Sequence record: PV800129.1
Length of the DNA stretch: 64,000 bases
From: Pseudomonas phage TIETA
Reading direction: 5' to 3' (one strand)
Part shown: positions 48,757-64,000 of the stretch, piece after piece
How positions within the stretch are numbered: position 1 is the stretch's first letter
Layout of the letters: every line of letters starts with the position of its first letter
Program-made: the position numbers and the translations under genes
Notes under the pieces: model-generated
What the model saw: the letters and a program-made list of their open reading frames with translations, nothing else
What the model was told of the DNA's origin: nothing
Databases searched by the model: none

Positions 48757-49743
48757 ATGCAATTCAATATATCGAAGCAACTATGGGTAGCTAAAAGCGA
48801 GCGGAAGGGCGACTATAAAGGGACGCTTTTGGCATACATGTCTCAAGTGGACTTCAATAAAGATGGTAGCTTGGCTGCCAGCTTCAAGAAAAAGCAGCAG
48901 ACTGGTATGAGCTGGGCAGGTAAGAATGCCGAGACTTGCTTCATAGACAACATCCCTATCTCGGGGCATTTCATCGGGGACAGTGTTGAACGCTGGGTCA
49001 CTGAGAACAAATACTTCCGTGTGACAGACCCACGGGGTTTCGTTCTGGAGGTTCCTACCGGGAATATCTCGACCTTGCTCTACAACTGCACAGTAATCAA
49101 AGGTGTGATCCAAGAGCCTTGCGTGTGGGTACGGATGGGTTCTCAGCACGTTCTACTGCCGGAAGGTTCCTCTCTCTACAAAGAGGCTGTAAGCTTCGTG
49201 GAGCGAAAAGAGTCGGCCAAAACTGTTAAAGATATGGTGGCAGGGGATCGATGCACTCTTCTTAGCTACGGGACAGAGGAGAAACTAGAGGCTATCTACC
49301 TCGGACAGGTGAAGATCACTTGGCACCTCCTAGCTAAAAAGGGCCGGTACTCTAGCCGAGGGTGGGGTGGGGGTCGGTGGGGTTACCACCATCTAGAGAG
49401 GGAACTAGATAGAAAAGAATTCACTGAGAAAGATTCGAAGTGGGTTAGTGTGTTCGCTAAGCCGGTAGGAAAGCGGTGGAGTATCCATTTTATCCTGTCT
49501 CCAAAGGCAACCGACATTCAATCTGGAAGCGTCCCGGATGAACTTCAGAATCTCGACCTAGTGAATGGTGTAAAATGGGAGTACAACGAGAAAGACGACC
49601 GCCCGTCTTCCTATTACTCTGTACCGGATAGGGTAGTTAAGTGTATCAGTGTAGATGATCCCCTATGGGATAATCTGCACAGCTCCTCGGAGGTGCGGTG
49701 GACCCGCGAATGGACCGTGGTCGGAGCAGAGTGGCGAAAATAA
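48757..49743 (+). CDS. hypothetical protein (328 aa)
   Basis: RBS AAGGAGGG; monocistronic between its own promoter and terminator; Trp/Gly-rich segment GWGGGRWGYHH. Confidence 0.5.
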   Translation: MQFNISKQLWVAKSERKGDYKGTLLAYMSQVDFNKDGSLAASFKKKQQTGMSWAGKNAETCFIDNIPISGHFIGDSVERWVTENKYFRVTDPRGFVLEVPTGNISTLLYNCTVIKGVIQEPCVWVRMGSQHVLLPEGSSLYKEAVSFVERKESAKTVKDMVAGDRCTLLSYGTEEKLEAIYLGQVKITWHLLAKKGRYSSRGWGGGRWGYHHLERELDRKEFTEKDSKWVSVFAKPVGKRWSIHFILSPKATDIQSGSVPDELQNLDLVNGVKWEYNEKDDRPSSYYSVPDRVVKCISVDDPLWDNLHSSSEVRWTREWTVVGAEWRK

Positions 49744-49763
49744 GCCACCATTATTTTAGAATT

Positions 49764-49787
49764 GCCCGGCGAGAGCCGGGCTTTTTC
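49764..49787 (+). terminator. rho-independent terminator
   Basis: GCCCGGC-GAGA-GCCGGGC + TTTTT. Confidence 0.7.
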
Positions 49788-49965
49788 ATGGCAGGGGTTA
49801 TTTTCAAATTATTTTTAGATTTCTGGGAGTTTCGGCCAATATGGGCAATATGAAATTTCTCAGGAAAAGGCTCAGAATGCTCGTATAAGAGCCGTTCGAG
49901 TGTGGGCAGGGTGAGCTACTACTTAGCCGTAGAAGGACAGTGTGACGCTTAATAGGAGGGTTAGA

Positions 49966-50139
49966 ATGAAGATTGACAACGGTGGCGAATATGCGTATTG
50001 GCTGGCGGATATCAAAGAGTTTGTTTCTCAGATGGATGCCACAGAGATCGAGAAGAGGGCTTGTATAGCATACTTAATTAGCTGGTATCAGCGAAGAGTA
50101 CTGCACAGAATTAAACGGGAGGAATACGAGGCGATCTAA
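49966..50139 (+). CDS. small protein
   Basis: 57 aa; RBS TAGGAGGG. Confidence 0.35.
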   Translation: MKIDNGGEYAYWLADIKEFVSQMDATEIEKRACIAYLISWYQRRVLHRIKREEYEAI

Positions 50140-50144
50140 GCTAG

Positions 50145-50300
50145 GGACCGGATGGATTTTTAGGGACTGGACAGATTTTCACAGACTGCAAAATTGAGAA
50201 CTGGGCAGATTTTTAGGAACTGGACAGTTTTTCACAGAAGGGGATTTTTCTACAGAGGAATTTCCCCTGAAATTTAGCCGGATTTCTCAGAAGGGCGGAT
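50145..50300 (+). repeat. iteron-like array of imperfect direct repeats (GGRACTGGACAGATTTTTMRCAGA)
   Basis: at least 5 degenerate copies (gggaccggatggattttta / gggactggacagattttcacaga / aactgggcagattttta / ggaactggacagtttttcacaga / ggggatttttctacaga) in an intergenic region. Confidence 0.55.
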
Positions 50301-50356
50301 CGTTAGCAGGCTATCTAATTGGTTAGCAAGCTACCTTTAATCGTTAGCACACTAAC
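50300..50356 (+). repeat. three spaced GTTAGCA-NN-GCTA/CTAAC inverted-repeat units
   Basis: cgttagcaggctatc / ggttagcaagctacc / cgttagcacactaac at about 20-bp spacing; same TAGC..GCTA core as the IRs at 62.6-63.9 kb. Confidence 0.5.
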
Positions 50357-50703
50357 TAAAAATTCCTAGGACGGACCTCAGTTGGCACGAACGTTGCAAG
50401 CCCGCACCAGTTTCCCGGGCAGGCGTAGGCCTCGACTATCCGTCGTGAAGGCTATATGTAGTTGGGGACTCGCACCCCGCGTTTAAGATGCGCCCATTCT
50501 ACTATGACAAATCACTTTGTCAACATTCTTTTTATGGCACAAGGATTGCAATTGCAATTAGCGTGCCAGCTTAAATCTCAGGCTCCCTCCGTGTTTGTCT
50601 CCGGTGCTCGGCCTCCAGCCTGCGTTGCCCGCCTGCCTGTCATTATACACAAGCTAGCAAGACAAGCAAGAAAAATTATAGAGAAAAATCTACATAAAAC
50701 CGG

Positions 50704-50732
50704 TTGACAGGCCTCCTTTATATATGCACAAT
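50704..50732 (+). promoter_or_regulatory. sigma70-type promoter (first of the early-type array)
   Basis: TTGACA-17-CACAAT. Confidence 0.5.
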
Positions 50733-50767
50733 GATCCCACATTCAACGGAACGGCAGGTAAGCAGCC

Positions 50768-51241
50768 ATGCTACATAGTGAAGCCCGCGCGATGGCCCTA
50801 CAAGAGATGGACAAGTGGAGCCTCCTCGAACAAGGTTGGAAATTCAGTTTCAATCGCAGGATGAAACGGACGCTGGGACGTTGTAATCATGCTAAGAAGC
50901 TCATAGAGCTAGGTCATGACTATGTAGCCGATAATGGGCTTCCCGCAGTACTGGACACCATTCGTCACGAAATAGCACATGCTAAGGCAGGTCCGCACCA
51001 TGGGCATGATTCTGTATGGAAAGAGTGGTGCGGATTGATTGGCGCTAAACCTAATCAGTACGCCAGTACAAAGGACAAAGTAGTCGACTTTCCTTGGCGG
51101 CTGGCGATCCGGCACGCGGATGGCACGTTAGAGCCGCTGAATCACTTCGGTTTCAGACGCACCAACATGGCGAGAAAACAGGTACGCGGGCGGCCTGAGA
51201 CGCCGGGCAGGCTAGTTTGGGTGAAGAACGAAAATAATTGA
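50768..51241 (+). CDS. SprT-like zinc metalloprotease domain protein
   Basis: 157 aa; HEIAHA (HExxH) plus a downstream His-rich stretch (PHHGHD). Confidence 0.55.
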   Translation: MLHSEARAMALQEMDKWSLLEQGWKFSFNRRMKRTLGRCNHAKKLIELGHDYVADNGLPAVLDTIRHEIAHAKAGPHHGHDSVWKEWCGLIGAKPNQYASTKDKVVDFPWRLAIRHADGTLEPLNHFGFRRTNMARKQVRGRPETPGRLVWVKNENN

Positions 51242-62440: not shown

Positions 62441-62533
62441 CTATCTGCGAAAGCGGGGCTTTCAAGTGTAATTAACATGTAATGTTGTAACACCCTGTAG
62501 AGGGTAACACCAGCATGACAAGATAGACCACTT

Positions 62534-62549
62534 GTAACGTTAACGTTAC
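62534..62549. repeat. perfect 16-bp palindrome GTAACGTTAACGTTAC
   Basis: self-complementary; flanked by GTAACACC direct repeats and AGCATGACA(A/G) repeats (62512, 62563, 62991). Confidence 0.7.
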
Positions 62550-62649
62550 ATGTATAACAGCATGACAGCGGAAGCTGTATGTTCACATTCTGTATAGATA
62601 ACCCTATCAAATAACCCCACAATAACCTACCTAAAACCTACCGGTTTAA

Positions 62650-63140
62650 AGCGGCCTGATAGGCCGTAGATGAAGCGATAGCTTCGCTATGTTAGTCTGC
62701 ACCGTCAAGGCGAAAGCCTTACAGCATGAGGCTTGTAGGAGGTTTTAGAGCCATATGCGATTAGCATAGGATGTTGGTTGTTTTGAGTAGATTTTGGGTA
62801 TAACCCCTTTCCGCGCTACCACTTTGCCGATTGTGTTAAGCGACAGCTTACATCCGCTCTCATTTTGCAATGAGAATTGCGTACAGTTCATCATGCGCCT
62901 CAGAAGTGACTTCACTTTGCATGCGGATGCATGCTATAGTATACCCTGTGATAGCTCCGCTATCCCGTTTTGCATGGCACACGAATTGCATAAGCATGAC
63001 AAGGGTAACCCTCGAAAGCGGAGCTTTCAAAGTGTAGCCTCTACCCTTTAGTATATTGCGACCGGAAGTAGTGACACTGAAAACCTTGACTCCAGCCCAG
63101 CAAATACGTTAAACTAAAAGGTTGATAGCTGCCGCTATCG
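62650..63140. repeat. noncoding region with recurring xTAGC-N3/4-GCTAx inverted repeats
   Basis: GATAGC-TTC-GCTATG (62677-62690), GATAGC-TCC-GCTATC (62950-62964), GATAGC-TGCC-GCTATC (63124-63139); also CGGCC-TGAT-AGGCCG at 62652-62666. Confidence 0.6.
63086..63115 (+). promoter_or_regulatory. candidate sigma70-type promoter for the AP2-domain gene
   Basis: TTGACT-18-TAAACT; the IR GATAGCTGCCGCTATC sits between -10 and RBS. Confidence 0.35.
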
Positions 63141-63169
63141 AGTAACCAACATTCACACAAGGAGGTACA

Positions 63170-63772
63170 ATGACAAGCAACAATCATGCCAAGATTCACA
63201 TCCATTACGCTAAGCAAATCTACTACGCCATGCGTAAACGTGCCATCGCAAGCGATGAGATATGCAAGGAATGGGCCAAGCCCAAGACAGGCTTCGAAGC
63301 GTTCTATGATTGGGTGGTGAATGTGTCAGGGTACGCCGTAGGCTACCGCCTAGACAGGAATATTCTCTTCCCGGGAAACAAGCTCTATGCTCCGCATACA
63401 TGCGAGTTCACACCTACATACATGCATACTCTATTCACCAACTGCGACAAGGCATGCAATAGCCGTGCCAATACGTGGGATAGCTATATCCCTCTAGGCG
63501 TCCGCCTAGCACGCTATGACAAGTATGGGATGCCTGTATACGTGGCTCAGTGTAGGACACTTGGAAAGCAGTCTACCCTTGGATCGTTCGACGATCCGAT
63601 GCAAGCCCATGCGGCATGGCAACATGCCAAGGTAGCAGCCATCCATGAATGTATCGATCTCTATCAGATGGAAGACGTTCACAGTGTAAACGTTGTTCAA
63701 GCGTTGCTTGAGAGAGTGGACAAACTTGGCAAGGATATTGCACAGGGGAAAGAGACTACATTGTTGCAGTAG
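63170..63772 (+). CDS. AP2-domain DNA-binding protein (HNH-AP2-like homing-endonuclease relative or regulator, putative)
   Basis: 200 aa; GVRLARYDKYGMPVYVAQCRTLGKQSTLGSFDDPMQAHAAWQHAK fits the AP2/ERF-like domain pattern; RBS AAGGAGG. Confidence 0.5.
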   Translation: MTSNNHAKIHIHYAKQIYYAMRKRAIASDEICKEWAKPKTGFEAFYDWVVNVSGYAVGYRLDRNILFPGNKLYAPHTCEFTPTYMHTLFTNCDKACNSRANTWDSYIPLGVRLARYDKYGMPVYVAQCRTLGKQSTLGSFDDPMQAHAAWQHAKVAAIHECIDLYQMEDVHSVNVVQALLERVDKLGKDIAQGKETTLLQ

Positions 63773-63817
63773 ATCGACGGAGCCATGGTCAACCCCTCTT
63801 AGAGTGCGAGTAATCCG

Positions 63818-63930
63818 ATAGCGAAGCTATCAAATGTATATGCATATTCCATGCCAACATGTGGAAAGATTTTACCCGGCAGGGCGGGAGCCCGTTGGCA
63901 TTAGTTTTGCATAGCTTAGCTGCCGCTAAG
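63818..63930. repeat. further xTAGC-N-GCTAx inverted repeats downstream of the AP2-domain gene
   Basis: GATAGC-GAA-GCTATC (63818-63832) and CTTAGC-TGCC-GCTAAG (63915-63930). Confidence 0.55.
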
Positions 63931-64000
63931 AAGGAAAGACCACGGCCGCCCATTATTTTGAATTTACTAAGGGTTAGGGTAGCGAGGTGGGTTCGTGGTT

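Follow-up and report, generated by a model that had tools for sequence, protein, structure and literature searches.

Conserved repeat arrays beside sigma-54-type promoter elements in a putative control region of Pakpunavirus and related Pseudomonas phages

Results

The subject of this analysis is a non-coding region of Pseudomonas phage TIETA, located within a 64,000-nucleotide stretch of the sequence record PV800129.1 (hereafter the window). Immediately upstream of the early genes, this gap harbors an array of direct repeats (50142..50238, plus strand) followed by an array of palindromes (50302..50356). The repeats are conserved in sequence and spacing across Pseudomonas phages, the genera that retain them numbering at least seven. 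The arrays share the gap with sigma-54-type promoter motifs, which are confined to the gap and to the direct terminal repeat at the right end of the genome. We propose, with a probability of roughly 45%, that the arrays are binding sites of an enhancer- or operator-type regulator coupled to sigma-54. A first-pass annotation, made from the sequence letters, had described the repeats as iteron-like and typical of replication origins, partition sites or terminase recognition regions. The broader view behind it, that these are probably protein-binding arrays in a non-coding control region, gains support from the conservation of the arrays across lineages.

The first array comprises four direct repeats of ~19 bp (50142-60, 50161-79, 50195-213 and 50214-32), with a CACAGA tail on units 2 and 4. 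When searched with at most two mismatches, GGRACYGGRCAGWTTTT matches the window solely at 50144, 50163, 50197 and 50216, which makes four copies versus 0.07 expected, and none of 100 shuffles reached four. Repeat-finding programs, including TRF, give the same array, with a period of 19 and spacings of 19/34/19. Two more plus-strand copies, GGGGATTTTTCTACAGA (50240-50256) and CCGGATTTCTCAGAAGG (~50278-50292), emerged from the repeat search and from reading of the sequence. These are partial or degenerate and have the T-tract and a YACAG/TCAG tail alone, so that the 'five or six' ~20-bp repeats counted earlier amount to four solid copies and two partial ones. The core common to all genera is GACAG-N-TTTT-Y-A, and the last unit, GAACTGGACAGTTTTTYACAG, is nearly invariant across them. 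In the whole genome of phage Adele, all four copies of the core are found inside this gap. Reading the core as an ACTG-GA-CAGT palindrome was rejected, conservation being limited to GACAG-N-TTTT. Sequestration of RsmA, an RNA-binding protein of the host, by GGA motifs in the repeats was likewise rejected, as the GGA words are lost in PAK_P3 and ventosus. Resemblance of the repeat unit to a Pho box or a las/rhl box was seen by eye, with a periodicity or spacing off by 1-2 bp, and is kept as a lead only.

The second array contains three palindromes of the GTTAGC-NN-GCTAWC type, spaced 20-21 bp apart: GTTAGCAGGCTATC (50302-50315), GTTAGCAAGCTACC (50322-50335) and GTTAGCACACTAAC (50343-50356). All three were identified both by reading of the sequence and by repeat finders, exactly as the first-pass annotation had described them. 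Their consensus across genera is WTAG-N4-CTAW, usually followed by CTAAT. The window has 12 sites of the form TAGC-N2-4-GCTA where 2.3 would be expected, and eight of these fall within two non-coding regions that make up 3.5% of its length. The recurrence of the TAGC..GCTA core at 62.6-63.9 kb, which had also been pointed out, is thereby confirmed. There, five copies lie in the terminal repeat (62952, 63126, 63507, 63819 and 63917) and a sixth, at 62679, just outside. Their 20-21 bp spacing places the palindromes of the gap on one face of the helix, with room for three dimers, or one hexamer. We consider them a candidate enhancer or operator array.

Next to the palindromes, a sigma-54-type -24/-12 element is present on the plus strand as an exact match (50383..50398, TGGCACGAACGTTGCA; element #1), with an inferred start at ~50409. 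Two further exact matches, TGGCACAAGGATTGCA (50535-50550, plus strand) and TGGCACGCTAATTGCA (50553-50568, minus strand), face inward and together form a palindromic pair, TGGCAC-N5-TTGCAATTGCAA-N5-GTGCCA (50535..50568). The 64 kb contain five exact copies of TGGCAC-N5-TTGCA versus ~0.03 expected from base composition. The two outside the gap are located at 62975-62990 (plus strand) and 63455-63470 (minus strand). All five conform to the published sigma-54 site, TGGCA(T/C)(G/A)nnnnTTGCA (PMC11704786). Copies with one mismatch were observed at 63263 (minus), 63727 (plus) and 63896 (plus), all in the terminal repeat. Thus, the motif with at most one mismatch is present eight times versus 1.1 expected, a count reached by none of 100 shuffles, and every match in the window belongs to the gap or the terminal-repeat region. 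In the complete 93-kb Adele genome, seven of seven strict matches are in the gap or in the two terminal-repeat copies, and PAK_P4 carries sigma-54-type motifs at the same positions. As judged from sequence, the -24/-12 element is a stronger motif common to both regions than TAGC..GCTA, and it was missed by the first-pass annotation. The terminal repeat also pairs a palindrome with a sigma-54 motif, at 62952 with 62975 and at 63917 with 63896.

Variation among relatives suggests how these elements are read. Element #1 is invariant in nine Pakpunavirus genomes and differs at its last base in phage EM. It lies on the plus strand in Pakpunavirus and on the minus strand, at the same place, in XD2, NoPa, UAVern, ventosus and Bitten; its distance to the last palindrome ranges from 39 to 87 bp across relatives, and the inverted copies of the other genera stand 56-87 bp from the palindromes. 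An element that is inverted and yet stays near the palindromes is expected of an orientation-independent enhancer acting at the DNA level, unlike an RNA element. Alignments of the elements show that TGGCAY and TGC are kept, whereas the 5-bp spacer varies freely and without complementarity. Constant GG/GC blocks around such a spacer point to a bipartite protein site and not to an RNA helix, and sigma-54 holoenzyme is presumably the protein that binds there. All 13 distinct genomes examined, three uncultivated viral contigs among them, carry the minus-strand element at 50553-50568; PAK_P3 and one uncultivated contig (L085) have lost the plus-strand element that faces it.

Over positions 49700-50800, the sequence shares 97-99.9% identity with more than 100 P. 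aeruginosa myophages of the genus Pakpunavirus, among them Pa-U, EPA1, JG004, PAK_P4 and PaP1. The window thus belongs to Pakpunavirus, a genus of virulent P. aeruginosa myophages. The same gap after a small open reading frame (ORF) was found in the Pakpunavirus EM, in PAK_P3 (Nankokuvirus), in phiPMW (Plaisancevirus) and in XD2, NoPa, UAVern, ventosus and Bitten, with a length of ~510 to 770 bp. The hosts of these phages are P. aeruginosa, P. putida, P. syringae, P. protegens and an Antarctic Pseudomonas. In the distant genomes, most of the gap is beyond BLAST alignment. Nevertheless, direct repeats followed by palindromes are kept in this order in EM, XD2, NoPa, UAVern, ventosus and Bitten, six lineages that lie outside the aligned Pakpunavirus genomes. 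EM, XD2, ventosus and Bitten each have three palindromes 20-21 bp apart; in NoPa and UAVern, a regular expression found two with the same spacing. In PAK_P3 the direct repeats persist, accompanied by no more than one degenerate palindrome. In the corresponding part of phiPMW (L007 1600-2000), unrelated repeats of TGGGAAA/GGAATTT words replace the GACAG repeats and the palindromes. Persistence of the arrays where the flanking DNA is no longer alignable rules out chance, and their conservation footprint suggests that specific sequences are recognised in the DNA itself. Proteins probably bind the repeats.

The second region with these motifs was delimited by comparison with genomes whose ends have been mapped. 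Phage Adele has a direct terminal repeat of 1165 bp, determined with PhageTerm (PMC12846349), and PaP1 a terminal redundancy of 1190 bp, established by run-off sequencing and S1 nuclease (PMC3652863). Bases 1-1165 of Adele, annotated as its terminal repeat, align to window positions 62839-64000, and the PaP1 ends fall in the same region. The last 1162 bases of the window thus correspond to the terminal repeat of its relatives, and the window stops where the genome physically ends on its right side. By the complete annotated Adele genome, it spans from the major capsid gene to that end. The direct terminal repeat (62839..64000) holds five sigma-54-type motifs and five TAGC-N2-4-GCTA palindromes. 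It also contains a plus-strand gene (63170-63772) whose product corresponds to the DNA-binding C-terminal part of HNH/AP2 homing endonucleases (C-terminal part of phrog_953, E = 4.5e-67). The nuclease domain is absent, and no Pfam match was obtained for this product. One terminal-repeat palindrome, GATAGCTGCCGCTATC (63124-63139), has the sigma-70-like promoter of this gene on one side and its ribosome-binding site on the other, an operator-like position.

GTAAC/TGTAAC words, the perfect palindrome GTAACGTTAACGTTAC among them, cluster at 62470-62560, in a stretch that follows a terminator and precedes the terminal repeat. The PAK_P3 equivalent of this region (L015 18830-19380) has at least seven copies of TTGTGTAAC/GTTACACAA. 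The cluster might serve in end recognition or as a loop anchor.

The borders of the gap are well marked. On its left, an intrinsic terminator on the plus strand (49764..49781; a stem of seven G-C pairs followed by a T-run), annotated as such in EPA1 and PAK_P4, closes the upstream replication and nucleotide-metabolism operon. It is followed by a plus-strand ORF of 57 residues (49966..50139) that has a ribosome-binding site, is annotated as a coding sequence in relatives and matches phrog_8175 (E = 3.6e-41); no Pfam domain was matched in it. The first-pass annotation had placed the repeats in a ~600-bp gene-free region. This ORF occupies 49966-50139, so that the stretch free of genes is 50140-50767, or 628 bp. 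At the same upstream position in other genera, the small ORFs are non-homologous, and some encode membrane proteins. On the right, the first sigma-70 early promoter (50704..50732, plus strand), annotated at the same position in PAK_P4, is followed by an SprT-like early gene (50768-51241). The arrays indeed lie between terminator and early promoter, as had been stated, both flanking signals having been found. In PAK_P1-like phages, 41-nt promoter repeats mark an early region of ~11 kb (PMC4309531), and the promoter at 50704 forms the left edge of that region here. No tRNA or transfer-messenger RNA was detected in the window. Among related records, that of phiMK (KU761955) contains artefactual features, namely a 'tRNA-Gly' of 61 kb (6787-67912) and a 'terminator' at 5304-53863, which show up under any match to it.

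In PAK_P4 the gap is itself transcribed, as shown by the RNA-seq-based annotation of its authors. A strong sigma-70 promoter, TTGACA-16-TAGAAT, is located on the minus strand (50496..50523), matches the consensus at 11 of 12 positions and is kept across genera. It equals 'putative promoter_03' of PAK_P4, the promoter annotated for the non-coding RNA PAK_P4as16. When the KC862300 annotation, which derives from RNA-seq, is mapped onto the window, the counterpart of this RNA covers ~50362..50562 on the minus strand and overlaps the minus-strand sigma-54-type element. According to a review, the function of PAK_P4as16 is undetermined (PMC12197685). Compensatory changes occur in its local hairpins in EM, and the folding energy of the region is ordinary on both strands (z = +0.96 and -0.34). 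A possible second minus-strand promoter has a perfect -10 TATAAT (ATTATA at 50642-50647 on the plus strand) and a weak -35.

Further downstream, an imperfect hairpin of 30 nt (50602..50631) is framed by the invariant blocks TGTTTGTCTCC and GCGTTGCCCG. Covariation across 12 phage genomes gave 95.8% of cells paired, compared with 30-59% in slid controls, and none of 500 shuffles equalled the observed score. Five of the ten pairs show two-sided compensatory changes and none shows one-sided changes; all changes are Watson-Crick on both strands. No Rfam family was matched at gathering thresholds anywhere in the window, the hairpin included. With E up to 10, the gap gave only chance matches to microRNAs and long non-coding RNAs. 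The hairpin blocks occur in phage contigs only. A bacterial copy was rejected, since a scan of representative genomes returned one chance match within an Acetobacter coding sequence.

Discussion

We propose that the arrays act as cis-acting protein sites in a promoter-dense region between the replication and nucleotide-metabolism operon and the ~12-kb early operon. The palindromes, with room for three dimers, and the adjoining GACAG-N-TTTT repeats would nucleate an oligomeric DNA-binding regulator beside host sigma-54 polymerase. The latter would sit at TGGCAC-N5-TTGCA elements 40-250 bp from the arrays. Geometrically, the arrays would correspond to the upstream activating sequence, or enhancer, used by an enhancer-binding ATPase. 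The output might be control of the small RNA or RNAs of the gap, or of transcription entering or leaving the early region. In this model, the repeats and the sigma-54 sites would be functionally coupled.

By geometry alone, the gap would resemble a sigma-54-dependent region, with repeated dyad sites on one helical face at looping distance. The palindrome centres lie at ~-100, -80 and -59 and the direct repeats at ~-270 to -170 relative to the inferred start of element #1. Several activator sites are known upstream of other enhancer-dependent sigma-54 promoters, three NorR or three GlrR sites preceding the -24/-12 element in each case. The gap shares with these a perfect TGGCAC-N5-TTGCA, three dyads about two helical turns apart at ~60-100 bp from the promoter, and a placement that is orientation-independent across relatives. 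Unlike them, it lacks a phage-encoded activator and an IHF match, its WTAG-N4-CTAW half-sites match no activator known to us, one of its element pairs is convergent and palindromic, and its setting is a virulent phage. Pseudomonas phage YuA has a sigma-54-like promoter (Ceyssens 2008, cited in PMC10914365). Both cases involve a Pseudomonas phage with a sigma-54-type promoter dependent on host polymerase. However, YuA is a siphovirus, unrelated to the present phages, for which one site has been reported, whereas here 5-8 sites occur in two non-coding regions, in several genera and beside repeat arrays.

Which protein would bind the arrays can be narrowed down by distribution. No enhancer-binding ATPase is present in the HHpred-curated Adele annotation, and none was matched among the window ORFs tested with Pfam and PHROGs. 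Since no phage-encoded activator was found, we infer that the regulator is a host protein. The AP2/HNH-type protein of the terminal repeat was rejected as the conserved palindrome binder: among the Pseudomonas phages searched it occurs almost only in Pakpunavirus, whereas the palindromes are found in six other lineages. The small ORF upstream of the gap was rejected as the conserved regulator because it is non-homologous across genera. As neither is conserved, a Pseudomonas-wide host factor is the simplest candidate. SrpA, a host regulator needed by phage K5, was discarded, its site TATC-N(0-9)-GATA being unrelated to the repeats. The first-pass annotation had suggested one protein for both regions; the recurrence of TAGC..GCTA is real, but the spacers differ by 1-2 bp and the AP2/HNH-type candidate is too narrowly distributed. 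An early protein of Nankokuvirus LSL4 binds PilS and FleS, the kinases governing the sigma-54 activators PilR and FleR (PMC10714779), a circumstantial link to the host-factor idea.

Several observations weigh against sigma-54 coupling. Beyond the missing phage ATPase, we know of no host activator that binds WTAG-N4-CTAW or GACAG-N-TTTT, and the gap has no match to the IHF site consensus. The spacer of the palindromes is N2 in the gap versus mostly N3-N4 in the terminal repeat. The inward-facing pair suits binding better than productive transcription, and PAK_P4as16, having a strong sigma-70 promoter of its own, is no proof of sigma-54 activity. In phiPMW both repeat arrays are absent, yet the sigma-54-type pair and the hairpin are kept, so the two modules are separable. 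Enhancer-binding ATPases use dyad sites roughly 100-150 bp upstream and contact the closed complex by looping (PMC7057263); the distance from palindromes to element #1 in Pakpunavirus is shorter than this. Finally, no sigma-54-like promoter of PAK_P3 is reported in the text of the ONT-cappable-seq study on this phage (PMC10914365).

A replication origin, with the direct repeats as initiator iterons, is an unlikely alternative, though one with several points in its favour. In this scenario, the promoters would give activating or priming transcripts, as in T7 and T4 origins, and the hairpin would be a single-strand initiation signal. As in the iteron origins of plasmids and of phage lambda, several phased ~19-bp direct repeats stand in non-coding DNA; there are four, where an iteron array has at least three of ~17-22 bp, and they are found nowhere else in the genome. 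The gap lies directly downstream of the replication module and has a dense promoter cluster on both strands. Its hairpin is conserved only as a structure, and the Watson-Crick nature of the changes implies that it would work equally well as DNA. One relaxed DnaA-like box, TTATACACA, with one mismatch, is present at 50643, but such boxes are not enriched, the window containing 15 near-matches of this kind. Unlike iteron origins, the gap has palindromes and promoters and lacks a cognate initiator gene; none is adjacent or annotated in Adele, and the neighbouring small ORF is not conserved. No strongly AT-rich unwinding element was seen (maximum 70% AT in 40 bp), nor an IHF-consensus match. The GC skew tracks the direction of transcription and provides no origin signal; its slope, but not its sign, changes here. 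The PaP1 authors put the skew minimum at the genome end (PMC3652863). In a Hi-C study of PAK_P3, coverage peaked at the 'extremities' of the map and was interpreted as one start site there rather than an internal one, the reference coordinates being unstated (10.64898/2025.12.15.694284).

We assign an equally low likelihood to an architectural role, in which repeat-bound proteins and inactive sigma-54 closed complexes would form a boundary or loop anchor that insulates the early region; such complexes might pair the gap with the terminal-repeat region. The same motifs are confined to two gene-free regions that bracket the early region, and the preference of the inward-facing pair for binding over transcription fits this role. 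Sigma-54 holoenzyme is known to rest inactive on promoters (PMC4591121). The Hi-C study of PAK_P3 describes a hairpin or loop, 3 min post infection, that is formed by 14 kb of the early region (10.64898/2025.12.15.694284). The gene-free regions there are the gap homologue (50571-51080) and a second one at 62818-63738, ~12-13 kb apart. However, equating the Hi-C anchors with these two regions is our own inference, and the second region of PAK_P3 has TTGTGTAAC repeats but neither sigma-54 motifs nor these palindromes. In a variant of this idea, the gap would act as an injection stop signal, placed where the first-entering DNA has its inner edge. Phage T5 has such a signal, a non-coding block with direct as well as inverted repeats that borders, on the inner side, an early gene block next to the terminal repeat. 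The gap shares this layout without sequence similarity, its sigma-54 motifs have no T5 counterpart, and neither the first-entering genome end nor two-step injection is known for this family.

Still less probable are operators of a phage or host repressor that would work independently of sigma-54, timing the switch between middle and early operons or stopping read-through, with the sigma-54-like motifs irrelevant or bound by another protein. Short palindrome or repeat arrays between a terminator and a promoter are typical of operators, the similar palindrome GATAGCTGCCGCTATC precedes the DNA-binding-protein gene of the terminal repeat, and phiPMW has the sigma-54 pair without the repeats. Against this, the repeats precede the early sigma-70 promoter by 350-560 bp and overlap no sigma-70 promoter. 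Nor does any conserved phage DNA-binding protein share their distribution, the AP2/HNH-type one being almost Pakpunavirus-specific. Repression would also leave unexplained why perfect sigma-54 elements are confined to the same regions. Terminase recognition (pac/cos) or a packaging start, which the first-pass annotation had considered, has a general resemblance to terminase-binding arrays and nothing else in its favour, and is rejected as highly improbable, because the Adele and PaP1 ends place the boundary at 62839 and the repeats thus lie 12.4 kb inside the genome. The partition-site reading is implausible for a virulent phage, and nothing in the analysis supports it.

The sigma-54 motifs and the arrays are unmentioned in the papers searched on PaP1, JG004, the PAK_P phages, Adele, phiPMW and the PAK_P3 and PAK_P4 transcriptomes. 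The description of the early region by Henry et al. is limited to the 41-nt sigma-70 promoter repeats (PMC4309531). Like those repeats, the arrays are conserved, non-coding and mark the early region in the same genome family; unlike them, they are not sigma-70 promoters, lie well upstream of the 50704 promoter and have an unrelated sequence. From its sequence, the control region would be unusual for its sigma-54 coupling in virulent phages, its conservation across genera and its recurrence at the terminal repeat.

For therapy of P. aeruginosa infections, Pakpunaviruses and related phages are leading candidates, and their transcription has so far been ascribed to sigma-70 promoters plus antisense RNAs. 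The analysis improves their annotation in that the physical genome ends lie away from the repeats, and it provides concrete sequences that can now be tested as PAK_P3 loop anchors and as control elements of PAK_P4as16. If the proposed regulation holds, a sigma-54 control region would constitute a second regulatory layer. Since sigma-54 needs an ATP-dependent activator, its use would tie a part of the phage programme to host signalling or to a novel use of stalled polymerase. More speculatively, and with rather low probability, a whole group of virulent Pseudomonas myophages may recruit sigma-54 polymerase and a repeat-bound factor to the regions bracketing their early genes, as loop anchors or insulators or as a stress switch run by a host activator. 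In the role of anchors or insulators, these sites would provide a sequence basis for the early-region Hi-C loop seen in PAK_P3 at 3 min.

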